From IMG/VR virus record IMGVR_UViG_3300002220_000736: DNA of 20,000 nucleotides; one strand, written 5' to 3'. The position numbers were made by a program, and so were the translations under genes. The DNA is from an uncultured virus (IMG/VR IMGVR_UViG_3300002220_000736) (lineage: Duplodnaviria > Heunggongvirae > Uroviricota > Caudoviricetes). This document shows positions 1,424 through 17,878 of the stretch, piece after piece. The number at the start of each line of letters is the position of its first letter. The stretch's first letter is position 1. Under the pieces are notes generated by a model. The model had not been told where the DNA came from and did no database searches. It saw only the letters and a program-made list of their open reading frames with translations.

Positions 1424-1792
1424 TTACTTTTTATAAAATCCTAGTAATAAAACCATTCCTGTATTTGTAGGATTTATTGTAAGCACTTCAAACTGTGCTA
1501 GAAAAACACCAAAATCATAAGGTATCGCCCCTTGCATCAGTTCAGCATCCGTTGACTCACACAATTGTTCTGTAATTATCATATCTTCAGGGCATTTGTA
1601 CTCGAACGGAATTGTATCTATGAAATTTAAAGCTATGACAAACGTGTAATCAGTCAATTCCGTTGTAGCTGATTTCAGGATAGTTTCTATAACTTTTTCC
1701 TTATGTACAAAGGTAGAACTATTGAAATTTTGAGATCCCTGCTTTTTTGCTGGGAGCTCCCCTTTAAACTTTCTTGTAACGACTACATCCAT
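1424..1792 (-). CDS. Hypothetical tail-region protein
   Basis: 122-aa ORF with a TAATG overlap to the upstream gene and a 3-nt gap to the next gene. No recognisable motif. Confidence 0.75.
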   Translation of the reverse strand: MDVVVTRKFKGELPAKKQGSQNFNSSTFVHKEKVIETILKSATTELTDYTFVIALNFIDTIPFEYKCPEDMIITEQLCESTDAELMQGAIPYDFGVFLAQFEVLTINPTNTGMVLLLGFYKK

Positions 1793-2121
1793 TATGTCAG
1801 ATTTATCACATCAGAATTGTTATACTCTTCTAAGTCAATATCATATTCATCTTCTGTCAAAAGCATCCGAAACGATGTCAACAGAAAGGGCTTATCACTT
1901 TGTTTACCATCAGAAAACATTTGGAATGGTTTCAAAATCCTTGCATCATGTATCGTACTTGATATTTTTTGCCTTGATTTGTTTAGTACTTGAAATTTGT
2001 TTATCATCAGTAAATCAACCAACGGCAAAAATCCACTTGAAGCCCCCGTAATTTCACCACCAGATAAGGCTGAATTAATCGTAATTTCATCAGGTTCAAA
2101 TGTTTCTATTGTAACTGCCAT
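1792..2121 (-). CDS. Chimeric small protein: first strands of an FN3 domain (aa 1-26) fused to a probable tail-tip C-terminal segment
   Basis: 109-aa ORF. TIETFEPDEITINSALSGGEITG resembles the start of the FN3 domain type common in Bacteroidota (TVTT..V..IT..SA.SGG.IT). The remainder resembles the end of a tail-tip protein (inferred). Confidence 0.7.
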   Translation of the reverse strand: MAVTIETFEPDEITINSALSGGEITGASSGFLPLVDLLMINKFQVLNKSRQKISSTIHDARILKPFQMFSDGKQSDKPFLLTSFRMLLTEDEYDIDLEEYNNSDVINLT

Positions 2122-2132
2122 AATATACGAAT

Positions 2133-4685
2133 TTAAAATTTTCTAACAAAACGAAAATAAATAGTTGTGTGTGTTTTTTGCCAATAAGTAGAATACCCAT
2201 TATTGTACCCGCCATAAATTACAATAGGGGTGACTAAGGAACTAAAATCAATAGCGTAACAATATTTGTAAGCTCGCCCCCACCCATAAGGTTCAGTAGA
2301 TGTCCAATAATGAAATTTTTCAAAACCTCCTATAACATCACGATTAGCCCAAATTGCTTTCAATTCATTGTAACTAGGTAAAAACCAATCATTATAAAAG
2401 TTATTTACCCTATAAGGAACTAATTTAGACAATCCTTGTTGCCCTTGTCTTGGGTTCGCCAAAATTGCTTCGGTATTGGCAAAACCACCACCAATTATGA
2501 TTCTGTTTGCATCACTTGTGTAAGGTCCACCTCCTGAAGTTACACCAATCCTATCACGGTATTGATAATCAGAAACAATAAGACCATGAATTTGTCCTGC
2601 AATATAACCATCATCCCCAGGTTGAAAAATGTAGCCAATAGTGCCTCCACCATATTTACTCCCCACAACTAAATTTAGAGTAGTAAATGAATAAGTTCCA
2701 CTTAGGATAGACGGCAAAGTAGCGTACACAACATTGCCTTCCCCATCAATGGCGTACGCACGAACATAGTAAAGCGTGTTAGGGTTCAACCCTGTCATTC
2801 GACTATTAAATGTTCCAAAACCAGTACCATTGATTGTATGAGGATCAGCTATTGTAGGAGGATTATTTGTTGAACTATAACAAACCCCTCTTTGATTCAC
2901 AACAGTTCCATCAGCTAAAATACCCCAACGTTCTGTTCTTTTGTCAAGGTCAGTTCCACGAAGAATGGAATTTTTATATGAATAACTTTTTGAATCGTAT
3001 AAATCTAAAGAAATAGATTCTTTATTCACAAAGTTCGGTTCAAAAGTTCCTTCAATAACATTGGCTTGAATATTTCCTGTTTCGGAAACAATAAAATCAC
3101 CAAAGTATGCCCACTGTACTTGAAACATCATTGGGTTTTCAGCATCATAATCATCAGGAAAATTAGCCTGTTCCCATTGTTTTTGTTCTTCCGATTGTTC
3201 GGTAAGATACATTGTTACAGCCCCAAAACCAATAGTTATTAATTGATCCCCACTTAGATTTCCTAAAAGATAATCTGGATTAAAGACATCATATTTTTCA
3301 ACTAAGCCTAATGGAATTGATATGTTTACATTGACACTTTGTGTTGTTGATTCAAAAGAAGAACCACTGATTTCCACATATTGAACAAAGCTTTCAGATG
3401 TTTCAGAGTATTCTGTCCTATAAGTTTTTTCATCCTCTTCCGATTCATTCGCTACAATATATAAATGCTCCGGATTGATCCGTACATAATAATGAAAACG
3501 AAATGTGTAATCTTTGAAACGCCATGTATTTTCAGGAAAAGGTTTTCCAGTTATCACATACCCAAATTGAATTTCTATGGAAGTATCCTCAGATAAAACT
3601 GTGGTTTTTATTGTCGTGGATAAGCCTTCAGATATTGGGTAAGGTACAAAAGAAGAAGCTGGACGCCTGTAAATAGCATTATTAAGTACAGAATAAGGCT
3701 GACCAGCATTATCCCAAAGAATATCCGATTGTACCCATGTTCTAACTTCAGGTGTATTTTCCGGATCTCCATCAAAAACAACGCCTGATAAATCACCATT
3801 TACTAGATTTTCAAATCTTTTATCTTGTAAGTCAATTCGTAGTTTCTTTATTCCAGGATTTACAGCTAACGTTTGTGCCGTTTCAGTAAACACAAGATCA
3901 TGAACTTCTAAAACAGTATTTGTTATAGGAACAACATCACCAGATGCCGGAACTAAAGAAATTATAGAGTACTCCACATAATCAACCGAAGTATTCCAAA
4001 TATCTGAATAACGTTCAATGTACCAAAAATCATCAAACCAATATAAAACACAATTAAAGGATATTAATATTGTTTTTAGTATTTCTAAACTGGTTGTTCT
4101 TTCTACATTATCCTCCCAAAACAATTCTGTGAAAACTCCATTTTTATCAAAAAGAGTATACCCAGCTTCTAAGGTGTCCCCTTCTGCACGTAAAATAGAA
4201 TTAATGCGTATAGGAAAATCTGCTCCAGTTGATCTTAGAATTTCATCAATAATTTCAATAAATGTGATGTTCTTTAACGTGTCGATACTTACAGGATGTT
4301 CATCTTGCAACTTGGACAGGAAACCACTGGCAACAAAATTAATAGATTGTCTTTTTAGATATTTTTGGTAAACTTGATCACAATTTAAAAAGCCTGTGAA
4401 TAAAGAAATAGTTTCTGGTTCGATTGTAACTACTCTAACCTTGTATTCCCTTTCTTTAGCATACATTAAAGGAAGAAGGGTGAAAAAGTCTGTTTCTAAA
4501 TTCATTAAAGAAAATTCCAATGTCATCCCTAACAATGGTTGTTGTGTATTTGTAGTTATGGAAAACCCATCTCTTTTTAAAACTAATTCGGAAGAAGTTC
4601 CTGCATAATCAATTTTATCTATATACAAATACCCTTTCTTAGTATCTGAATGCCATCCTGAATAATATATATTTCCGTATGCCAT
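2133..4685 (-). CDS. Tail-tip/hub protein (aa ~1-588) fused to an N-terminally truncated FN3 domain and a C-terminal DUF1566/Lcl C-type-lectin-like domain
   Basis: 850 aa, directly after the tape measure gene. FN3 motif RGVCYSS...PTI...GTGFGTFNSRMTGLNPNTLYYVRAYA. Lcl motifs VG..YGGG.I.YI, HGLI, G.G..NT..I, DWFLPSYNEL, YWTSTE, FRFVRKF*. Confidence 0.8.
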   Translation of the reverse strand: MAYGNIYYSGWHSDTKKGYLYIDKIDYAGTSSELVLKRDGFSITTNTQQPLLGMTLEFSLMNLETDFFTLLPLMYAKEREYKVRVVTIEPETISLFTGFLNCDQVYQKYLKRQSINFVASGFLSKLQDEHPVSIDTLKNITFIEIIDEILRSTGADFPIRINSILRAEGDTLEAGYTLFDKNGVFTELFWEDNVERTTSLEILKTILISFNCVLYWFDDFWYIERYSDIWNTSVDYVEYSIISLVPASGDVVPITNTVLEVHDLVFTETAQTLAVNPGIKKLRIDLQDKRFENLVNGDLSGVVFDGDPENTPEVRTWVQSDILWDNAGQPYSVLNNAIYRRPASSFVPYPISEGLSTTIKTTVLSEDTSIEIQFGYVITGKPFPENTWRFKDYTFRFHYYVRINPEHLYIVANESEEDEKTYRTEYSETSESFVQYVEISGSSFESTTQSVNVNISIPLGLVEKYDVFNPDYLLGNLSGDQLITIGFGAVTMYLTEQSEEQKQWEQANFPDDYDAENPMMFQVQWAYFGDFIVSETGNIQANVIEGTFEPNFVNKESISLDLYDSKSYSYKNSILRGTDLDKRTERWGILADGTVVNQRGVCYSSTNNPPTIADPHTINGTGFGTFNSRMTGLNPNTLYYVRAYAIDGEGNVVYATLPSILSGTYSFTTLNLVVGSKYGGGTIGYIFQPGDDGYIAGQIHGLIVSDYQYRDRIGVTSGGGPYTSDANRIIIGGGFANTEAILANPRQGQQGLSKLVPYRVNNFYNDWFLPSYNELKAIWANRDVIGGFEKFHYWTSTEPYGWGRAYKYCYAIDFSSLVTPIVIYGGYNNGYSTYWQKTHTTIYFRFVRKF

Positions 4686-4687
4686 TT

Positions 4688-7600
4688 TTAGAATGATTTT
4701 TGAAATTTACCCATTTCATTTAAAATACCAACAAGTTCCCGTCCTTCTATTACAAACCTAACTTCTTGTTTATTATTTCCACTATCTTTCCCGAAGATTT
4801 CAGACACTTTGTTCAAAGGTATTACCGTTTCGCCACTTGTAAGCATAGCTGGGAAGGAATCGTTAGGAAACCCACTAGGAACCATTCCGCCAGTTGCCAT
4901 ACCAGTAGCTTTAGATTTTTTAGAAGAGTTTGAAGATAAAGCAATGGCAATAGCAGCAATTCCAGCAAGTGCCAACCCAATTCCAACAATAGGTATCCAC
5001 GCAACCGAACTAGCAGCCCCAGCAACAGCAGCACTTGTAGAAGCAGCAGCTTTTGTTGTTTCCGCACCGGCAGCAGCTAATGTGATAGGTATACCGCTTG
5101 CAGTTGCTATGTTCTTTGCTTTTTCAGCAGCAGCCGATAACTTTGTGACTTTTGTAATAGCTTCTATAACACGAAGTACCCCAGATATGATTTGAGCACC
5201 TTCTTGAAAAATACCAAAAAGTTCCTGAAAACTATCTCCCATGTATTTAGCAACAGTATTTGCCAAAGACCCTAAAGAAGAAAACAAACTTTTCCAAGCT
5301 GATAAAAGTTGTGTGCTTTGATTTACTGTTTCATTTAACTCATTGAATTTTTTTATCATTTGCTGAACAAGGTCTATTTGTTCAGGCGACATCAAATCCA
5401 TTTTTTCCTTACTTGTTAAAGTATCTAACGCCCCTTGAAGGATACTGACATCTTGTGCAGCCTTGTTGTACCCATCCCCTAATATATTGGCAATGTCCGC
5501 ATTATCCTGCAATGCTTTATTTGTGTTGGAAAAAACTGCATTAAGTTCTTCCGATTCTGCTATTGTTTTTGCAAACAGATTTCCTTTAGCTATCCTTTTG
5601 TCTAAATTAGATAAATCAAAAAATTGTGGGGATGTTTCCTTTATTTGTTTCATAGCTGGGCTATCTTCTACTTTTTTCTTGGTCGGATAAAATGTTTCTA
5701 CTGATACCCCTAATGGTTTTATAGGGGCGTTGTCAAATTGTGCCTTAGCTTGGTTGATCAATTCATCCTGTTTCTTTTGGATTTTGTCCAAAGCAAACCA
5801 TTCACGGGATAGTTGTTTCAATCTTTTTCCTGATGCTGTATCCATCAAGGTCGTTAAAGCACTTATTTGTTCTGCTAATGTTTTTACTTCTTTTCCTGAA
5901 TCAGTAGCACCAACAACAATTGGTTTTCCTGTTGCTTTATCAATAGCAACAGTTATTTCATCAATCACTTTAATTTGATCTTTTCCTCCTTCAACTACTT
6001 TTTGTGTTTCATCATACATTTTGTTTAAGTAGGCCGTTTGAAGCACATAATTTTTCCTACTTTTTTCTGCTTGTTTATCCTCAGCCTGTTCTACTAATTC
6101 AACACCAGTTCTTACAAAAGATAAAGCCCCAACTACTTGTAATAAAACACCTTTCACTTTATTGATTTTCCTATCATCACCACTCATGGTACTTGACAGG
6201 TAATCCTTTTCCACGGATACTTGTTTTTGCTGGATAGCTTCTAACTTAGCTTTATTCCTAAGACTTTCTACATAAGTGTTTATTGCAGTAGTTGCAGCAA
6301 CCGTTTTTAAAGTTTCAGAATCAATAAAACCCAAGTATTCAGGAGATATAGAATTTATTTGTCTTATGGCAGATTCCCTTGCTTGCTTGCTTGCATTTTC
6401 ACTATTAGCCAAACGCAACAAGTTAGTTAATGCGACCTTTTCTTGTATAATGTTTTTGTTTGCCTGTTCCATTACATCTGACAAAATTTGTTGTGTTGCC
6501 GATGCTTTTTTAGCAGATGATGTGAATAACATGAAAGCAGCCGAAGCAAATAAAATTGCTTGTAAAAGAAACATTAAAGGGTGTGCAGAAAAAGCAGCCC
6601 ACAAACGCAAGACAACTCCAGTTAAGAAAGTCAAAGCCCCAATCAACGCTGTGACAGCCCCTTGAAGTAATCCTAAAATAAGCAAAACAGGGCCAAGAGC
6701 AGCAAGAATTCCTGCCCAAAGTATGATAGTTTTTTGTTGTGATGATGTTAGATTTGAAAAACTATTTGCAAGCCTTTCAATAAACCTAGCAACTGATTGT
6801 ATCAATCCTATTAATGGCTCTCTAATAGCTTCCCCTATTTTAACCAAAGATGCTTGCATACTTGAAACCGACCTATTCCAACGATCCATAACAGTACCAG
6901 TGATAGACTGTATCCCATCAGCTAAAGATCCTGCCGAATTTTTGGTTGCATCTAGCACCTTTACCAAATTTGAAAAGTTTGGCCCCATCATATCCAATAC
7001 AGGAAGTAAGGCTCTAATATTGGTGAAAACATCTCCTAAAACAGTAATATTGTCTTCATACGCTTTTGTGTTTTGTAGGACGTCTAAAGTGTTGCCCCCT
7101 ACCATCTTTTTCAAAGCTTCGACAAAAGCAAGCATACCATCATCACGTAAAACTTTACGTAAATGAGCAAAAGAAATGCCCACCTTTTCCAAAGCAGCTT
7201 CCGCTCTAGGAGGCTGTTGTACTAATGTTGTGAACAAACGTGCCATTTGGGTGGAAGCTTCAGCAGCACTTTTTCCTGATAATGTCAAAGTAGCTAAAGA
7301 CCCTGCAACTTCATCAAATTCAACACCTAACTGAACAGCTAAAGGCATCACCTTTCCTATTACTCTTCCTAAAGCATCTGCCTCCCCTTTACCTTCACGT
7401 ACCGCAGCAACTAAAATATCAGTTGCTTGCCCTGCCGTGATAGCAGTATGCCCATAAGCATTTAAAACACTGGTTACAGCATCAGCAACAGCTTTAGTAT
7501 CACCAAGACCAATTCTAGCAGCATCAGCAGATTTCTTTAAAATGTCCATTGCTAATGCAGTTTCCCTTATACCAGAAGACCCTATGAAATATAAACCTTC

Positions 7601-7954
7601 CGCTAGTTCTTTAGGGGCTTTTCCTACTTTGCCAGCAAGATTTAAAAGTTCATTGGACATGTCGTGTATTTGGCTTCCTGTAAAATTCGTCAAAGCTGCC
7701 ATTTTTCCTAAAACTTGCTCGAATTTTGCAAACGACGTCACAGCAGCCCCACCAAGTAATGACATAGGAACGGTAACAAATTGTGTCAACATTGTTCCTG
7801 TCAACATCATTTGAGAACCCAAAGATTTAAAGGAAGCATTCATTGCTGCATTAGATCCGATCACCTGTGATTCAAACCGCCTCATGTTCACAGCAGCGCG
7901 TGAAAGCCCTGCGGTATTTACTCCTAACATTACCTCAAAAGATCCTAGATTCAT
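4688..7954 (-). CDS. Tail tape measure protein (TP901-family core)
   Basis: 1088 aa, Ala-rich and helical. Contains the core motifs FEQ.L.KM.A, P.ELAEGLY.I.S.G and A..A.D.L.AAVREGK, hydrophobic segments and a terminal MATGGMV...DS.PAMLT.GE.V.P motif. Follows the chaperone genes. Confidence 0.95.
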   Translation of the reverse strand: MNLGSFEVMLGVNTAGLSRAAVNMRRFESQVIGSNAAMNASFKSLGSQMMLTGTMLTQFVTVPMSLLGGAAVTSFAKFEQVLGKMAALTNFTGSQIHDMSNELLNLAGKVGKAPKELAEGLYFIGSSGIRETALAMDILKKSADAARIGLGDTKAVADAVTSVLNAYGHTAITAGQATDILVAAVREGKGEADALGRVIGKVMPLAVQLGVEFDEVAGSLATLTLSGKSAAEASTQMARLFTTLVQQPPRAEAALEKVGISFAHLRKVLRDDGMLAFVEALKKMVGGNTLDVLQNTKAYEDNITVLGDVFTNIRALLPVLDMMGPNFSNLVKVLDATKNSAGSLADGIQSITGTVMDRWNRSVSSMQASLVKIGEAIREPLIGLIQSVARFIERLANSFSNLTSSQQKTIILWAGILAALGPVLLILGLLQGAVTALIGALTFLTGVVLRLWAAFSAHPLMFLLQAILFASAAFMLFTSSAKKASATQQILSDVMEQANKNIIQEKVALTNLLRLANSENASKQARESAIRQINSISPEYLGFIDSETLKTVAATTAINTYVESLRNKAKLEAIQQKQVSVEKDYLSSTMSGDDRKINKVKGVLLQVVGALSFVRTGVELVEQAEDKQAEKSRKNYVLQTAYLNKMYDETQKVVEGGKDQIKVIDEITVAIDKATGKPIVVGATDSGKEVKTLAEQISALTTLMDTASGKRLKQLSREWFALDKIQKKQDELINQAKAQFDNAPIKPLGVSVETFYPTKKKVEDSPAMKQIKETSPQFFDLSNLDKRIAKGNLFAKTIAESEELNAVFSNTNKALQDNADIANILGDGYNKAAQDVSILQGALDTLTSKEKMDLMSPEQIDLVQQMIKKFNELNETVNQSTQLLSAWKSLFSSLGSLANTVAKYMGDSFQELFGIFQEGAQIISGVLRVIEAITKVTKLSAAAEKAKNIATASGIPITLAAAGAETTKAAASTSAAVAGAASSVAWIPIVGIGLALAGIAAIAIALSSNSSKKSKATGMATGGMVPSGFPNDSFPAMLTSGETVIPLNKVSEIFGKDSGNNKQEVRFVIEGRELVGILNEMGKFQKSF

Positions 7955-9692: not shown

Positions 9693-10261
9693 GGTCGTAC
9701 CTGTGCATTAGTTTTTACTATATAAATGATCTTATCAAAGTTCCTGTACAACGCTGCCTGAAAGAATTTCGGCCCACTTCCTGATTTAGACCAATGGACA
9801 CCTTCCGGTGGGTATTTGGCATCAACCATTTCATGTACAGGAGCAGCGTAATAAGCACTAAATCCCATTATAACACCAATAGGGTATGGGGACATTGTGA
9901 TATCTGCTTCAGCTAAAGCTACTCTATGACCTTCTATTAATGCAGCTAATATTTCAGGAGTATCTGCTTTCCTAAATTTTGCTTTTCGTACTTGCATTGC
10001 TTTTGAAACAGGGTCAGCATTTTTCTTAGTCACAATAAACCAACTAGCCCGTAAATTCCCATGTTTTAATGGAATAAATGGTGGTACATTTTCCATATCA
10101 CGCCTTACCTCAATTGCTGCAAGTATTAATCCTTTGTTTGTTCTGTTCTTTATGTTGTTTATTTCACGATTTAAATTAGCATGAATTAGGGCAAAGTCAC
10201 GTTTCAAATTTCCACTTACTCCGGAAACTCCTAATAACCCTATTCTGCTGCGTAAATCCAT
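9689..10261 (-). CDS. HK97 gp10-like neck/tail completion protein
   Basis: 190 aa. Motifs P...GNLRASW, GFSA.YA..VHE and GPKF...A; lies between the head closure and terminator genes. Confidence 0.8.
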   Translation of the reverse strand: MDLRSRIGLLGVSGVSGNLKRDFALIHANLNREINNIKNRTNKGLILAAIEVRRDMENVPPFIPLKHGNLRASWFIVTKKNADPVSKAMQVRKAKFRKADTPEILAALIEGHRVALAEADITMSPYPIGVIMGFSAYYAAPVHEMVDAKYPPEGVHWSKSGSGPKFFQAALYRNFDKIIYIVKTNAQVRP

Positions 10262-10262
10262 T

Positions 10263-10658
10263 TTATAAATATATTTGAAATATCTTAATACTAGGATCGT
10301 TTAAGGATGGAATTGCATTGATCTGTTTTATTTCCCACGCACCTTCAGTTGTGTATGGATCGAATGCAGAATCAAGACTATCTAAAGTTCCCAGATACAT
10401 GTACCCATCCAAATCCCACCCACCAGTAGGAACATTGGAAGTGTATAGTGTTGCATTTGTCCTAAACTCACGACCGTCTTTTCCAATTTGAATCCTGCTT
10501 CGTGCATCTTTGGCAAAGTTTTCAATTTCATCTTCCCAACGAACCATAACTTCCTCGATAACACCAAAAGTGTATTTTCCACGACCATCATTTACAGGAG
10601 ATCCCCAGTAAACACATTTATCCTTGCACTTTCCTTTTATGAATGATCCTATGCTCAT
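10263..10658 (-). CDS. Head closure (stopper) protein
   Basis: Motifs CVYWG.P..DG.G...F....E...RWED and a neck-gene position. The likely start is the ATG at 10658 rather than the GTG at 10661, because it matches the duplicated start at 11139. Confidence 0.75.
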   Translation of the reverse strand: MSIGSFIKGKCKDKCVYWGSPVNDGRGKYTFGVIEEVMVRWEDEIENFAKDARSRIQIGKDGREFRTNATLYTSNVPTGGWDLDGYMYLGTLDSLDSAFDPYTTEGAWEIKQINAIPSLNDPSIKIFQIYL

Positions 10659-11079
10659 CACTATTGTGTGTTTGTAAATAAATAATCATATTTTGTAAAA
10701 TCCCAATGTCATCGTTAACATTCCCTAATGCTAAATTACAACACCAGCATAACAATGCCCTAACACCATTTGTAGAATGGTCATGGTCAACATTTAACCT
10801 ACTTTTAAATTCTGACTGATGTTTTCCACATATAGCACAACAACCATCTTGTTCAAAAAACATCGCATTATACCTATCCGTTGTGATGTGATATTTTCTT
10901 TTTAAATAACTTTCTCTTTGAATTTCAGTAAAACGTACATTGTTGTCTAATCGCCAATCTTCCCAACTTTTCTTATTATTCTTGTACCATTTTCGTTTTT
11001 CCTCTAAAACATGTGCATGATTTTCCTTTTTCCATTTTTTAGCCCATTCTTTTCCTTTTTCTTTATCTTTGTACGGCAT
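10618..11079 (-). CDS. Endonuclease VII-family (His-Me finger/HNH) free-standing homing endonuclease
   Basis: 153 aa. Basic N-terminus, then L.RKY.IT...Y..M...Q.G.CAIC....L.VDHDH.T..VR.LLC..CN..LG...D, the canonical Endonuclease_7 pattern. Confidence 0.92.
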   Translation of the reverse strand: MPYKDKEKGKEWAKKWKKENHAHVLEEKRKWYKNNKKSWEDWRLDNNVRFTEIQRESYLKRKYHITTDRYNAMFFEQDGCCAICGKHQSEFKSRLNVDHDHSTNGVRALLCWCCNLALGNVNDDIGILQNMIIYLQTHNSDEHRIIHKRKVQG

Positions 11080-11085
11080 CTTTTG

Positions 11086-11139
11086 CTATTTTTGTGTTGT
11101 ATTTTTGCTTTTACCTTTTATGAAAGATGCTATTGACAT
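11086..11139 (-). pseudogene. Orphaned original 5' end of the head closure gene (17-aa mini-ORF MSIASFIKGKSKNTTQK*)
   Basis: Coupled by TAATG to the adaptor stop. 10 of the first 14 residues are identical to MSIGSFIKGKCKDK at 10658. Confidence 0.8.
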
Positions 11140-12907: not shown

Positions 12908-14836
12908 TTATATAACCTCCCATGTTGGTATAGGTATTATGAACTTCCCTTTGTACTCAAGTAATTTTATTTTTTCAATTATCTCTTCCTTAAAATTCCA
13001 AGACAAAATAACAATGTAATCAGGATTTATTTTCATTATCTTTTCTATACCGTATATAGGTATCCCAGTTCCAGGTGAAAATTTTCCAATCTTCTCAGGA
13101 GTTTGATCTATTATACAGGAAACAATATCAGTGTTTATTTTGGCACAATTCAATAGAGTATTACCCTTAGCACTGGCTGCAAACCCGATTATCGTATTTC
13201 CTTGTTTTTTCAATTCTAATAAATTTGTACCAAAATCTTCGATTATGATTTTTATTTCATTAGACCAATTCAAATAACTATCAATTTTACCATACCCTTT
13301 ATTTCTTTCTTCTCTACTTATTTCTACTACTGCTGATGACGGTATGTGCTTACTTTTCGTATGAGCAATAGTGTATCTCATAGAACCACCATGGATAGCT
13401 TGTTTTTCCACATTAATTACTTTCATGCCACTGTCACAGCACAATTCCATCATAGGGTTTACGCTCCAATAGGAAACATGTTCAAAGTACACGGTATCGA
13501 ATGCCATGTTCTCAATAAAATCAATCAGGTATGGATTCTCGATAACCAGTATTCCATCAGGTGCCAATGCTTCCTTACATGCCCTTATGAAATCTCCAAC
13601 TTTATCCAGATGTGCAAAAACGTTGGTTGCGGTTATTAAGTCTGCCTTACCGTCTATTCTGCCTACCAAGTGGCTTCCCCAAAAATCAGTAATCGAAGGG
13701 ATGCCGTCGGCCTCAGCAATTGCAGTTAAATTTGAAGCAGGATCAACATTCAAAACCTTATGGCGAAGTAAGCCCTTGAACACCTTTAATAAGGCTCCAT
13801 CATTTCCTGCAATATCTATATGAAAAGTATTTTCATTAAGCCCAAATTTGTAAGTCAAAGATTCGCACATATCCTTACAATGGTCGAGATAGCCTTTATT
13901 GATACTAGATCTGTACGTGTAGTAGTCAAACATCTTTTTGGGGTCTACGACTATGCTCAACTGTGATAGCCCACAGTCAGGGCAGAGCATCACCTGCAAT
14001 GGGTATTGTTCTTTAGTTTTTGCCAATTGAGAAGTGAATTCTAAATTGTTGGCCAAAGGCATAAGCCCCAAATCCAAATATTTAATCAGATCAGAGGAAC
14101 CACAAACACGACAATAATTATGTGGTCTGGCAATTGCATTTGATGTTTTATACTCTATCCATTTCTGCAAATTCAAAGAAGTGTCATAAGGTGTTACAAA
14201 ACTTGTGTCTTCTATTTTTACAGGAATTACATTTGATTTTTTGGAGGCGTGTTCATACAATGTTTTTCTTTCTGTTCCTAAATTCAACACCCCTGTTAAT
14301 GGAGAAATAGCAGCTTCATAAATCATGGGTGCTATTTTATCCACATAATCTTTAGATGTCCATTTATCTATGAATGCTTCTTTGTAATCGAATGCTGATT
14401 TTCCAAATGATGTACGTATAATTAAATGATTTGTAACAGCTTTTACAGAACATTCACCTCCAAGTTTTGTCCATGAATAAAGATTGAAAGGTAGAATATC
14501 ATCGGTTTCCTGATAATTGCCTCTGTCACCTTTATATATATAGTCAGTACTGATGTAAACCAAACGTATTCCTCTTTGAATACATTCCATGGCAATATTA
14601 GCTGTGCCTATGATGTTTGTTTGAACGGCTTCAATAGGGCATTTTTCAACAATTCTGTTATCAGTAATTGCAGCAGCATGAATAACTATATCAGGATTAT
14701 GTGTACTGATAGCTTTAGATATATCAGAATATTTAACAACATCACATTCCTTTTTTGTTAAACAAATAAGATAAGGATTAATTTTTATTAATTCTGTTCC
14801 TAAACAACCTGTAAACCCTGTTAATAAAATTTTCAT
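12908..14836 (-). CDS. Fusion of an RmlD-like NDP-sugar reductase (aa ~1-230) and a Zn-binding NDP-sugar C-methyltransferase
   Basis: N-terminal half: ILLTGFTGCLG, HAAA.T, YISTDY.Y.G, YSWTK. C-terminal half: CRVCGS..LDLG.MPLAN..CPDCGL.QL, DIAGNDG.LL, TNVFAH, FDTVYFEH.SY, IHGGSMR, A.AKGNTLLN, K.GK.SPG..IPI, LSWNF. Confidence 0.9.
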   Translation of the reverse strand: MKILLTGFTGCLGTELIKINPYLICLTKKECDVVKYSDISKAISTHNPDIVIHAAAITDNRIVEKCPIEAVQTNIIGTANIAMECIQRGIRLVYISTDYIYKGDRGNYQETDDILPFNLYSWTKLGGECSVKAVTNHLIIRTSFGKSAFDYKEAFIDKWTSKDYVDKIAPMIYEAAISPLTGVLNLGTERKTLYEHASKKSNVIPVKIEDTSFVTPYDTSLNLQKWIEYKTSNAIARPHNYCRVCGSSDLIKYLDLGLMPLANNLEFTSQLAKTKEQYPLQVMLCPDCGLSQLSIVVDPKKMFDYYTYRSSINKGYLDHCKDMCESLTYKFGLNENTFHIDIAGNDGALLKVFKGLLRHKVLNVDPASNLTAIAEADGIPSITDFWGSHLVGRIDGKADLITATNVFAHLDKVGDFIRACKEALAPDGILVIENPYLIDFIENMAFDTVYFEHVSYWSVNPMMELCCDSGMKVINVEKQAIHGGSMRYTIAHTKSKHIPSSAVVEISREERNKGYGKIDSYLNWSNEIKIIIEDFGTNLLELKKQGNTIIGFAASAKGNTLLNCAKINTDIVSCIIDQTPEKIGKFSPGTGIPIYGIEKIMKINPDYIVILSWNFKEEIIEKIKLLEYKGKFIIPIPTWEVI

Positions 14837-14837
14837 A

Positions 14838-17195
14838 TTATCTTTTGTAAATTACAATAAATCCATTCATAAATTGAATTGATTCAAATGCGGGTACATT
14901 TTTGTGACAATCCTCTCTACAATGCCACCCTTTTTCCATACTACCAAATTCTTGTGGAGGATTTATAGGGACACTCCCCGCAACTCCTTTAAAATGAATA
15001 TCATCCACAAACGTCTTAAAATATTCTACTGTTGAAATTGGATTGTTATTATAATACTCCCAATAAGAAGTAGTAGTATCTTCAACAATATAAATTCCGC
15101 CTTTTCTAACATAAGGAAAAAGAGTATTAAAAGTAAGAATTTGTTCCTTCCAAAAATGATTCCCATCATCTATTATTAAATCAAATGGGGAAAATTGTTC
15201 AAGGTTTTTAAGTTGCGCTTCATTACTTTGATCAATTAAATGAAATTTGATTCTGTCCGAATATGATTCACAAATTTGAGACGCTTCTGAAATATCGGCT
15301 CCATGAATAGTTGCTTTTGTAAAATAATCAGCCCACATTCTCATAGATTGCCCTTGTGCCACACCTATTTCCAAAATAGATAAAAAGGATTCTCTAAAAG
15401 GAGCAAGTATCTTGTCGTACTTGACTGCATAGTTATGGTATCTGGAAGATTTGTCTGCTTTATATTGAATGGCCATCCTATCCAGAATACTATTTACAAC
15501 TACTTCAGGAACATCTTGTACGACAGAAGGAAATACTTCTTCATGTTTTTGCATTAAATTGAGGTACGATCTATTATGTGCGTCCCATAAAACAGATAAT
15601 TTTAGGTCATTAACAACCATTACAGGTTTCTTACCCATATCAATGATTTGTTCATACATATTCTTACCTCTATGTTCAAATTGATAGCAGTCTTCTCTAT
15701 TATATATTGGATCTTTTGGAAAAATGAGTTTTTTAGAAATGTCTTTAGTGACTAGAAATCCTGTTGTTCTTACATGAGTTTTTACTTCATTAGAAATTTC
15801 ATAACATGGAATATATGCATCAGATAGTTTTTCTAAAAACTGCCCAACAAAATCTTTTGACATTGGAATGCAATCATCAGTAATCCAAATTAAATTATCC
15901 CATTTATTTGGAAAATTTGCAAGTCTTTCCTTACATACATCCTGAAAAGCACCAAGATCAAAACCTGCATTTTCTCTTGCCACATATTTTATTCCATTAT
16001 CATCGCATAATTTCCAATATTTGTGGTTGTCACTTTCTTGATTATGAATAACAACAAGTTCTGCATCTCTTCTATCACATTGATTCCAACAATTTACCCA
16101 TCTCCTTAAATTTTCAAACCTATTCCAGACAATAATTACAACAAGTGTTTTTATCTGAATTGGTTTACTTTCTTCCCACCACATATCATACCATCTGTGC
16201 ATCCGTTTGTCTATTTGAGTTTTTAGTTTTTTGAACGGTTTAGATTCCTGACAATGCACAATAATTGGTTTAGATGGAACTGGTAACGTAGGACAAACTA
16301 AACCATAAATATCTTGATAATCCCATTCCAGGGGTAATAGTTTTATTTTCAAATCTTCCATGTAAATAAAATCATTTAAAACACCTTCGTCAATTGAATA
16401 AGAAAAAGGAGCTGTATTTGCATAATTTAATAATTTTCTATACCATGCTTTTTTTATGATAGTTTTATTGACCACTAATAAAGCAGGTTGAATATCTATT
16501 TTGCCTTCTACAATTCTCTTGCTAAGGTTGGAAAGACGTAAACCTCGTCTTTCTAGTTCAGGTATAAGTGTATTAAAGCATTTAGAAACTATATAATCTT
16601 CAACGGATATCAAATCATATTGATTTAATTCTTCACTAAACAAATAAGAGATATCTTGAACACAAATGCAATCAGAATCAATACATATTACTCTGTTATA
16701 TTCCACCATATTGAATATTTCATAACGATACCAAGAAGTGGCATATTTTTCAACAGGTAATTCTTCACTGTATTTGACATTGGCGTAACGGGCTTTAATT
16801 TCTTCTGTAATAAAGTGGCAATTTTCTTTTCCTAATTCATTCAATACTTCTATATCCGCTGTAATTACTTTAAAATCTATTCCAGTACAATCAGTATGTC
16901 GTCTAATTGAATTAAACAAAGTCTTTCCAGCCTCTTTGTAATTCTTGTCAAATACAGTAGCAATACAAATTTTTTCAATCTGCTTACTATTATTAAATAC
17001 GTTTTCTTCCACTTTAAAATATTCCACAGGAATCACTTCAGATACCAAAACAAAATCCTTACTTAAATGTATTGGTATTTGTGATGGCACAGCATAAAAT
17101 TCCTGATTTTGCTTTATCAACTTATCTCCTAAACGAAACAACCCTCCGGTTATTTTCTTATACTTTAGTTTTATAGGTGTTTGAATAACTGCCAT
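14838..17195 (-). CDS. Multidomain enzyme: small N-terminal module + GT8-like + second GT-A-like domain + MycE/TylE-like SAM O-methyltransferase
   Basis: GT8-like: YNRVICIDSD.ICVQDISYLF, DEGVLN, IVH...KP. Second GT: REN.GFDLGAF, WITDD.IPM. Methyltransferase: DK...H.Y...Y, LEIGV..G.S.RMW..YF, DLIIDDG.H, GG.YIVED..TSYW. Confidence 0.88.
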   Translation of the reverse strand: MAVIQTPIKLKYKKITGGLFRLGDKLIKQNQEFYAVPSQIPIHLSKDFVLVSEVIPVEYFKVEENVFNNSKQIEKICIATVFDKNYKEAGKTLFNSIRRHTDCTGIDFKVITADIEVLNELGKENCHFITEEIKARYANVKYSEELPVEKYATSWYRYEIFNMVEYNRVICIDSDCICVQDISYLFSEELNQYDLISVEDYIVSKCFNTLIPELERRGLRLSNLSKRIVEGKIDIQPALLVVNKTIIKKAWYRKLLNYANTAPFSYSIDEGVLNDFIYMEDLKIKLLPLEWDYQDIYGLVCPTLPVPSKPIIVHCQESKPFKKLKTQIDKRMHRWYDMWWEESKPIQIKTLVVIIVWNRFENLRRWVNCWNQCDRRDAELVVIHNQESDNHKYWKLCDDNGIKYVARENAGFDLGAFQDVCKERLANFPNKWDNLIWITDDCIPMSKDFVGQFLEKLSDAYIPCYEISNEVKTHVRTTGFLVTKDISKKLIFPKDPIYNREDCYQFEHRGKNMYEQIIDMGKKPVMVVNDLKLSVLWDAHNRSYLNLMQKHEEVFPSVVQDVPEVVVNSILDRMAIQYKADKSSRYHNYAVKYDKILAPFRESFLSILEIGVAQGQSMRMWADYFTKATIHGADISEASQICESYSDRIKFHLIDQSNEAQLKNLEQFSPFDLIIDDGNHFWKEQILTFNTLFPYVRKGGIYIVEDTTTSYWEYYNNNPISTVEYFKTFVDDIHFKGVAGSVPINPPQEFGSMEKGWHCREDCHKNVPAFESIQFMNGFIVIYKR

Positions 17196-17878
17196 TACAA
17201 TATGTCTTTAACGTTCATTTTTGAAAACTGAGTGATTAAACTTGTAGGACTTGCATTTATAATTTCAACACCTAATCGCTTTGCATCCAAAGCAATCTGC
17301 TCAAACCCTGCTAAATGTTTATGAAAAGGCATACTAATTTTCCCATCGTATTGATCATGCCAATGCCCTTTTCCGGTTTGACTAAGAGCCATATCAAACC
17401 CTAACAAAATTATTCTTTTACAACCTGTGTTATACGCAAGGCTAATAGCAGCAGAACCGCTATTGTTATTCCAACACACTTTTGTTGTGTCTGTACTAAT
17501 TCCAAAATTCTTACTATTGTCTTTTTGCAAGTATTTTATTCCAAGATTTTGCCAACCCTGCACTTGCAAAAATTCAGAACAACCTACTAATAAACCTTTA
17601 TATGCTTTTAAATCGTTAGCATTTTTAAAATACCAAGTCTTATCACCAAAGAAACAAACATCAACCCAATCGCCTAATAAAAAAGCCCCGTTTACTCCTA
17701 TTACATGCTTATCATGTAACAAAGACATATAAGGGGAATAAGCAGAAATAGGCAATTCTTTTGCATAAACTTTATCCACTACTTTTTTAGGGATATGAAA
17801 TTGGGTAGTGATGCTTGCCCCACCACCTACTATCCAACAAGTCCCTTCATTCCATATTTTAGGAACTGCCCAAATCAT
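17195..17878 (-). CDS. MptE/DUF115-like (Maf/CstII-like fold) putative transferase
   Basis: Motifs IVGGG.S, VIGVN.A, NSG.AAI.LA...G.KRI.LLGFDM, HWH and EIINAS..S....F. Confidence 0.75.
   Translation of the reverse strand: MIWAVPKIWNEGTCWIVGGGASITTQFHIPKKVVDKVYAKELPISAYSPYMSLLHDKHVIGVNGAFLLGDWVDVCFFGDKTWYFKNANDLKAYKGLLVGCSEFLQVQGWQNLGIKYLQKDNSKNFGISTDTTKVCWNNNSGSAAISLAYNTGCKRIILLGFDMALSQTGKGHWHDQYDGKISMPFHKHLAGFEQIALDAKRLGVEIINASPTSLITQFSKMNVKDIL

Follow-up and report, generated by a model that had tools for sequence, protein, structure and literature searches.

A phage tail hub gene split by one cyclic period of an FN3-lectin adhesin gene, and the two-chain assembly that this arrangement suggests

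The stretch of DNA analysed here, called the window below, is 20,000 nucleotides (nt) long, comes from an uncultured Caudoviricetes virus (IMG/VR record IMGVR_UViG_3300002220_000736) and is a portion of a 23.67-kb IMG/VR contig. On its minus strand, a gene predicted to encode the tail hub is interrupted by one cyclic period of a second gene, coding for an FN3 domain followed by an Lcl_C lectin domain. Two reciprocal chimeras result: a large gene of 850 amino acids (aa), with most of the hub, strands C to G of the FN3 domain and the lectin, and a small gene of 109 aa, with FN3 strands A and B and the end of the hub. Comparison of genes and structural models leads us to infer that the arrangement is old and fixed, and that its two products probably form a two-chain hub which displays the lectin by double complementation.

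Read 5′ to 3′ on the minus strand, the order is tape measure gene, 850-aa open reading frame (ORF), 11-nt spacer and 109-aa ORF. The hub gene, whose first base is 4685, follows the tape measure gene directly, an order common to the related loci L005 to L010. A first-pass annotation, made from the letters of the window, had described these ORFs, their coordinates, both junctions and a removable segment of 878 nt. All were re-derived as it gave them, and are as follows.

4688-7954, minus strand: tape measure protein gene (PHROG tape measure families, E down to 4.5e-49)
2133-4685, minus strand: large chimeric gene, 850 aa, hub N-terminal part followed by FN3 strands C to G and lectin (ORF list, hub and FN3 profiles)
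2922-4685, minus strand: hub N-terminal part, residues 1-588, last residues ...KRTERWG (hub profile)
2670-2921, minus strand: FN3-like domain without strands A and B, residues 589-672, strands C to G (FN3-repeat profile)
2136-2669, minus strand: Lcl_C / DUF1566-like lectin domain, residues 673-850 (Pfam, homologues, model of a homologue)
2133-2135, minus strand: stop codon of the large gene
2122-2132, minus strand: 11-nt spacer between the large-gene stop and the small-gene ATG
2044-2921, minus strand: insert of 878 nt, made of codons 27-288, stop, spacer and codons 1-26 of the FN3+Lcl_C gene
1792-2121, minus strand: small chimeric gene, 109 aa, FN3 strands A and B followed by the hub C-terminal part (ORF, both profiles)
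2044-2121, minus strand: FN3 strands A and B, residues 1-26 of the small protein (FN3 profile; strands from the model of homologue P0187)
1795-2043, minus strand: hub C-terminal part, residues 27-109 of the small protein (hub profile)
1792-1794, minus strand: stop codon of the small gene, overlapping the ATG of the next gene

The 878 nt are accounted for by 864 nt of coding sequence, 3 nt of stop codon and 11 nt of spacer, and the arithmetic proposed for a restored hub of 671 aa (588+83) and an FN3-lectin protein of 288 aa (26+262) is correct. That one cyclic period of an FN3+Lcl_C gene splits a tail-tip gene into two reciprocal chimeras, the central proposal of the first-pass annotation, was borne out by the profile comparisons reported below. 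GC content rises to ~0.37-0.40 at 2250-3000, against ~0.32-0.33 in the flanks. We gave this shift no weight: it is too slight, and could be explained by Gly-rich coding sequence.

Relatives of the 850-aa protein, gathered by an exhaustive profile-free search, fell into two size classes. The long class (14 proteins of 822-1065 aa, the window's own included) covers hub, FN3 and lectin; the short class consists of 25 unsplit proteins (642-768 aa) whose match begins at residue 1 of the query and goes no further than residue ~590. The C-terminal ends of all 25 unsplit proteins match the small protein instead, from residues ~24-36 to residue 108 (E 1.5e-22 to 2.8e-8). A hub profile of 646 states was built from these 25 relatives, and the large and small pieces were scored on the profiles separately. 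The large ORF covers states 1-561 (E 2.9e-177) and the small ORF states 566/567-646. Of the colinearity that the earlier annotation had proposed to look for across its joins, the hub part is seen in these piecewise comparisons: the unsplit loci hold states 1-646 in one gene, and the two window pieces hold 1-561 and 567-646. The spacing between the W and the KF on either side of the join differs by at most one residue from the unsplit consensus.

The AF2 model of an unsplit relative, P0041 (pLDDT 86, pTM 0.81), shows the four-domain baseplate hub fold of gp27, Mu gp44 and VgrG. Its structural matches (VIA Z scores in brackets) comprise the PVC spike 9qgm (19.3), the Mu baseplate 9ki1 (18.3) and Mu gp44 1wru (16.5), and further VgrG, the T5 and lambda tail tips and Tal. 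Alignments to the hub fold (Z 15-19, ~300 residues) reach from model residue 15 to residue 675, which makes the last 83 residues part of this fold rather than an appendage. The gene also lies beside the tape measure gene, the position of a baseplate hub in a tail module. On the strength of this model, the gene after the tape measure gene is the central tail hub, with a gp27 / Mu gp44 / Tal-like fold, and the small protein should be needed to complete that fold. The break site falls just after the invariant W598 of P0041, in coil preceding helix 608-620, within a confidently modelled region.

The same model has a sugar-binding sandwich of CBM4-like / BT_4411-like type, an in-frame insertion in the hub at residues 332-547 (VIA Z 11.9 and ~10), which corresponds roughly to residues 300-520 of the 850-aa protein. 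Since the hub family already holds this module, the split clade carries two modules of carbohydrate type.

The same search also found very large proteins in which the FN3-like unit of the large protein recurs in long tandem series every ~98 aa, and 250 such units were used to build an FN3-repeat profile of 104 states. Residues 3-26 of the window small protein correspond to states 11-34 (from state 10 in one scoring), and residues 593-654 of the large protein to states 37-96 (E 1.9e-22). Six large and six small proteins were tested in this way: all the large ones match from states 33-39 onward (E 1.6e-26 to 8.6e-20), and all the small ones match states 11/12 to 34-43, starting at their residues 2-4. 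A match to the whole domain was obtained only when both proteins were taken together. A Pfam scan of the FN3 region of the window protein returned only a weak match to Pur_ac_phosph_N (E 0.0071). The composite domain has a B-C loop ~2 residues longer than the consensus.

When the first 30 aa of the nine small proteins were scored by themselves, all nine matched the FN3 profile in a single register, at 10.0-18.9 bits (10.7 bits for the window). On the hub profile, eight of these nine 30-mers were listed, at -1.8 to -3.1 bits, and the ninth gave no entry. These scores remove another candidate, namely that the small-protein start is a copy of the hub segment upstream of the junction, with which it shares a 15-nt repeat (2093-2107 and 3037-3051, encoding IETFEP and EGTFEP); moreover, that hub segment is conserved in unsplit relatives, within hub states up to 561. 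The case for the putative FN3 identity of the 26-aa start is one of register and recurrence. It is joined by the AF2 model of P0187 (pLDDT 90), a standalone bacterial FN3+Lcl_C protein whose model matches solved FN3 domains (TMt 0.6-0.73). In this model, strand A occupies residues 36-39, strand B 49-58, a loop 59-65 and strand C 66-72. Strand B ends exactly at the position of the break, which therefore lies in the B-C loop of the FN3 domain. Profile register and model thus agree with the original assignment of residues 1-26 of the small protein to strands A and B.

The lectin assignment was reached by homology and by fold. The Pfam Lcl_C family (PF07603) gave E 0.0057 on the window protein, with 17.4 bits, below the gathering cut-off of 34.9; eight of 12 relatives match it at E≤0.01, the best at 3.7e-7. 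Region 589-850 matches standalone proteins annotated with PF07603, such as P0172 (E 3.3e-23) and P0187 (E 1e-16), and the P0187 model resembles the C-terminal domain of Legionella Lcl, 8q4e (TMt 0.77, 26% identity). Both lines make the domain Lcl_C / DUF1566-like (PF07603). Standalone FN3+Lcl_C proteins of 281-293 aa exist, and the type of gene reconstructed from the insert is therefore real. The lectin was also considered as a target of a diversity-generating retroelement. This candidate was rejected: there is no template/variable repeat pair (no repeat of at least 30 nt involves 2133-2669), and no reverse transcriptase was found in the scanned ORFs of the window and of the adjoining 3.9 kb.

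Single-protein searches of annotated phage genomes and of IMG/VR returned only the source contig and one weak FN3 match, and a word-based search with the 109-aa protein by itself returned only that protein; relatives surfaced only in profile or alignment searches. Alignment-based scans of IMG/VR and JGI metagenome contigs yielded 30 loci, and with two more from IMG/VR 32 loci were scanned. Nine distinct split loci were found (the window, L005, L006/7/16, L008/30, L009, L010, L015, L017/18 and L019), and every locus with a long hub gene and DNA downstream of it carries the small gene (9/9). In other loci (L011/20, L012/22, L021, L013, L023, L024-26, L027, L028 and L031/32) the hub is unsplit, with one gene over states 1-646. 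Loci L004, L014 and L029 are cut by contig ends and so were left out of this classification.

The two breaks recur at the same places in all split loci, the hub break at states 561-572 on one side and 563-568 on the other, and the FN3 break at states 34-43 and 33-39. Identity among the nine loci is 37-56%. All 14 long representatives have the break, their FN3 match starting at states 33-39. A profile search with the nine small proteins gave 28 clusters of proteins of 107-124 aa, and in every one the FN3 start (states 11-13 to 32-43) comes first and the hub end (states 562-568 to 640-646) after it. The earlier annotation would have been contradicted by relatives that keep the small gene separate although they lack the FN3-lectin module; small genes lacking the FN3 start numbered 0 among the 28 clusters, and the unsplit relatives are all single genes. 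The motif of the FN3 A-B piece, T..I..SA.SGG.[IV][TS], is kept in one register in all nine small proteins, whose overall identity is only 36-56%. Insert length in the eight relatives varies from 842 to 965 nt, and their spacers measure 12, 11, 12, 11, 2, 15, 92 and 85 nt.

A few members of the family depart from this picture. In L017 and L019 the spacer before the small gene is 85-92 nt, against 2-15 nt elsewhere. Some hubs of the split clade (L017 1775-4936, of 1053 aa, P0013 and P0015) have an extra insertion of ~180-230 residues after hub state ~32. Among unsplit hubs, that of L011 (4001-6307, identical with P0042, 768 aa) and that of L020 carry a complete FN3 domain (states 18-103) past the normal C-terminus, with no lectin. 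This is an independent, ordinary route of adding FN3 to the hub.

Two trees were obtained by quick searches with SH-aLRT support, and midpoint-rooted. In the hub tree (555 columns, insert excluded), the 19 split rows stand on one side of a branch and the 31 unsplit rows on the other (SH-aLRT 93, 1 change). In the tree of the FN3(C-G)+lectin module, the 19 phage modules are likewise separated by one branch from 51 other FN3-Lcl_C modules (SH-aLRT 95). The nearest kin of the window are L015b and P0003 in both trees. The presence of the split forms on one branch in the two trees fits a single origin, and the split clade probably consists of phages of Bacteroidota.

We propose that the hub gene would have received exactly one cyclic period of an FN3+Lcl_C adhesin gene. 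The insertion point would be a surface loop near the C-terminal end of the hub, from which the hub frame would enter the FN3 domain in its B-C loop; in the hub and FN3 models, the point does fall in loops of both folds. The two polypeptides would be made separately and would reassemble through two adjacent interfaces. At one of them, the small chain would return the missing end of the hub fold. At the other, it would supply two of the three strands of an FN3 sheet: FN3 domains consist of the sheets A-B-E and C-C′-F-G, and because strands A and B sit in the first of these, the FN3 domain of the large chain would have an open core without them. Both hub connections would reach the FN3 domain at the B-C loop, with the lectin hanging from the opposite pole, so that the FN3 domain would act as a stalk holding the lectin outward from the tail tip. 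The lectin would presumably bind a glycan of the host surface.

Beyond its oddity, nothing in the arrangement speaks for a misassembly or a decaying pseudogene, an explanation to which we give practically no credence. In the junction check, made on Logan contigs of four DNA runs, both junctions are spanned, with zero differences, by contigs assembled from other samples (X2 records 4 and 5, X4 record 12), nine distinct loci from different metagenomes agree, and both ORFs are intact and conserved. The misassembly that the first-pass annotation had allowed for can thus be set aside. A low-depth X3 contig (record 8, 1637-2046) stops no more than two bases from the small-gene junction and has no loose end; we take its end at 2046 as chance. 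The same contigs bear on a switchable adhesin cassette, also envisaged at first, in which the 878-nt unit would be excised as DNA or circularised as RNA, restoring the 671-aa hub and a free 288-aa adhesin gene. Its removal would indeed be in frame and leave the hub colinear within 1 residue, and its closure would give an FN3 domain correct to within ~2 residues. However, neither empty-site nor circle joints were present in the contigs of the four runs, which can miss rare forms. The GGG microhomology first noticed at the two junctions is at chance level and carries no weight: the strings that they share are 4-7 nt long, are not conserved, and in all nine loci are no longer than those at control position pairs (the fraction of control pairs with a string at least as long ranges from 0.08 to 0.99). 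No recombinase was seen in the window originally, and this still holds for the scanned ORFs, now extended to 3.9 kb beyond its low end, among which neither a recombinase nor a reverse transcriptase was found. The repeat scan detected no repeat of at least 30 nt touching the insert region, and a spacer of only 11 nt leaves no room for a recombination site; the features of a site-specific cassette, recombination sites at both ends and a recombinase, were therefore not found there. Finally, the junctions were inherited unchanged down to ~40% identity. A switch is very improbable on these grounds, and we read the arrangement as structurally fixed. The first-pass annotation had offered two functional readings, and it is the fixed insertion that fits the data, with junctions common to 9/9 loci and 14/14 representatives, and one clade.

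How the two genes are used leaves two further alternatives to weigh. Readthrough or frameshifting might join them into one chain with a circularly permuted FN3-lectin insertion. The ORF pairs of L005, L008 and L015 are in frame, with one stop and 4-5 sense codons between them and no further stop in the spacer. Yet large and small genes share a frame in only these 3 of the 9 loci, which is the chance expectation, the others being in +1 or +2; two loci have spacers of 85-92 nt; and the small genes all begin with an ATG of their own, at strand A. From these frames, the spacer range of 2-92 nt and the private start codons, we infer that the two genes are translated separately, and a single chain appears scarcely credible. 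The other alternative is that the FN3 A-B piece is a tolerated leftover: the small protein would dock by its hub part only, and the five-strand FN3 remnant of the large chain would be an uncompleted linker. The hub part by itself is strong and conserved (62-110 bits), the FN3 start is short (5.4-13.6 bits), and complementation is deduced from the genes. A neutral remnant should, however, have decayed or vanished in some lineages, whereas the A-B motif stands in the same register in 28/28 clusters and in 9/9 loci at 36-56% identity, and the rest of the FN3 domain in the large protein is still a strong match (E 1e-19 to 1e-26). Retention of the FN3 start in every lineage is therefore the main argument for its use, and we consider a leftover improbable. 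A complex prediction with residues 470-850 of the large protein and the small protein gave scores of 0.00 and 0.02 (mark 0.32) and, run without controls, delivers no verdict either way.

As to origin, the insert corresponds to one cyclic period of an FN3+Lcl_C gene to within ~2 residues. The first-pass annotation had imagined a one-gene circle integrating through its own coding sequence. Its one cyclic period stands; the circle itself is no more than compatible with the data. A single period taken from a tandem gene array would leave an identical product, and either would amount to a single insertion. Likewise, the complete 288-aa gene holds as arithmetic and as a gene type, and its "own start" may partly be a later adaptation, standalone homologues having signal peptides. 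A bolder candidate, a little less likely than not, is that a cyclic adhesin gene, recombining through its own coding sequence into a hub loop, may have made in one step a natural and long-lived split FN3 lock, formed of an A-B hairpin and strands C to G, that would hold the two chimeric chains together. Other routes to the same product would dispense with a free one-gene circle: an FN3-lectin insertion made in frame could have undergone tandem duplication in place, end deletions and fission, or a phage integrated within a host FN3-lectin gene could have been excised imprecisely. FN3 modules do join this hub independently (P0042/L011, an unsplit hub with a complete C-terminal FN3), FN3 units are found in tandem, at the ~98-aa period, in many proteins, and no mechanism making 878-nt circles was seen. 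But each of them would take more events than a single crossover with a cyclic unit, and no intermediate, such as an in-frame unsplit or a duplicated insert, was present among the 150 best representatives or the 32 loci. We regard them as rather unlikely.

Several points weigh against an old two-chain hub produced by a single cyclic insertion. Both the two-chain assembly and its presence in the virion are predictions from genes and models. The matches of the 26-aa start to FN3 are short and individually weak, whether scored in whole proteins or as 30-mers, and the longer composite FN3 loop limits the placement of the breakpoint to within ~2 residues. Given the spread of spacer lengths, tight translational coupling is not conserved. 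In the three standalone bacterial homologues examined, P0172, P0187 and P0189, strand A is preceded by a lipoprotein signal peptide, whereas in the small gene it comes right at the start, and no donor-like 288-aa gene without signal peptide was found among the relatives searched. Lastly, with midpoint roots only, the direction of the change, gain or precise loss, rests on plausibility.

Other regions of the window gave additional observations. An endonuclease VII-like gene (PHROG 2914, E 8e-33) lies at 10618-11079 on the minus strand, within the head-tail connector region; it is flanked by an imperfect direct repeat of 34 nt (10619-10652 and 11100-11133, 79% identity), overlaps the neighbouring ORF 10263-10661, and may be a mobile nuclease insertion. 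Three large ORFs occupy 12908-17878 on the minus strand, in the interval that separates head from connector genes, and each has a partial family match: nucleotide-sugar epimerase for the first (642 aa, E 1.3e-25), methyltransferase for the second (785 aa, E 8.2e-22) and alpha-2,3-sialyltransferase for the third (227 aa, E 1.8e-32). It is uncommon for a structural module to contain genes for sugar modification. At the low end, the gene at 3-776 on the minus strand, continued in L001 at 9910-11130 (406 aa), encodes a downstream protein with a PKD domain. It contains a periodic repeat of 147 nt (1-40 and 148-187, 78% identity) encoding units of ~49 aa, and its product is possibly a fibre or receptor-binding protein.

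Insertion of a domain normally needs a guest with two ends close together. The FN3-lectin adhesin has its ends at opposite poles and so is unfit for ordinary insertion. This phage clade appears to pass the host chain through one of the guest's loops and to leave the guest ends free, the price being a split protein. If the chains reassemble, this would be a clean natural case of circular permutation, gene fission and domain insertion in one event, for which the unsplit ancestor type and the standalone guest type are both still available for comparison, and the natural split-FN3 pair might serve as a protein docking module. Annotators should then bear in mind that a small "hypothetical" gene behind a tail gene can hold the end which the tail gene lacks, and any modelling or engineering of the receptor-binding tip in these phages would require both genes.

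No published account of such an arrangement, or of a one-step route by insertion of a cyclic gene, was found in open-access full texts and bioRxiv. Related situations are known. One is that of fractured genes carrying split inteins, in which the two parts of an interrupted phage gene each bear half of an intein, and the intein halves reassociate and so unite the host parts (Dassa et al. 2009, PMC2677866). [quoted passage not shown] In the present locus the order is cyclically shifted, 11 nt separate the genes, and the module stays as an adhesin. No intein or Hint family was matched at E≤0.1 in either window protein, the sequences at the break being FN3.

Genes in pieces are also produced by homing endonucleases. 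In the nrdA/mobE locus of phage Aeh1, a free-standing homing endonuclease gene is reportedly inserted in coding sequence, and the separately translated pieces are said to reassemble. There as here, an inserted gene leaves two pieces translated separately, but there the pieces are pure host pieces with an autonomous endonuclease, whereas here both are chimeric and no nuclease is involved: the halves have no free-standing endonuclease between them, and the insert consists of FN3-lectin coding sequence and 11 nt. Circular permutation of proteins, by duplication and deletion or by fission and fusion, is another parallel, in that the FN3+Lcl_C unit is cyclically shifted (C-G, lectin, A-B). Known permutants, however, are single proteins, and in our case the permuted unit lies inside another gene, its original termini are free chain ends, and two polypeptides are made.

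Among tail proteins, T5 pb3, lambda gpJ and Tal have gp27/gp44-like hubs with sugar-binding or Ig-like modules in loops, as proposed here; those decorations are in frame and continuous with the hub chain, whereas the chain is broken in the split clade. In Bacteroides phages, DUF1566 or C-type-lectin-like domains are said to be targets of diversity-generating retroelements. The same kind of lectin would then be carried on phage tail proteins in both cases, with the difference that neither a template/variable pair nor a reverse transcriptase accompanies it here in the window and the adjoining 3.9 kb. The closest structural parallel to the proposed FN3 interface is donor-strand complementation: in chaperone-usher pili, and in engineered split Ig-like domains, an Ig-like fold is completed by another chain. 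An Ig-like sandwich would likewise be completed from another polypeptide in the two-chain hub, except that two strands rather than one would be given, that no polymer would form, and that complementation is here predicted from genes and models. Split genes with reassembling products are thus already known, and the present arrangement differs from them in its cyclic shift, in doing without an endonuclease, and in retaining the inserted module.

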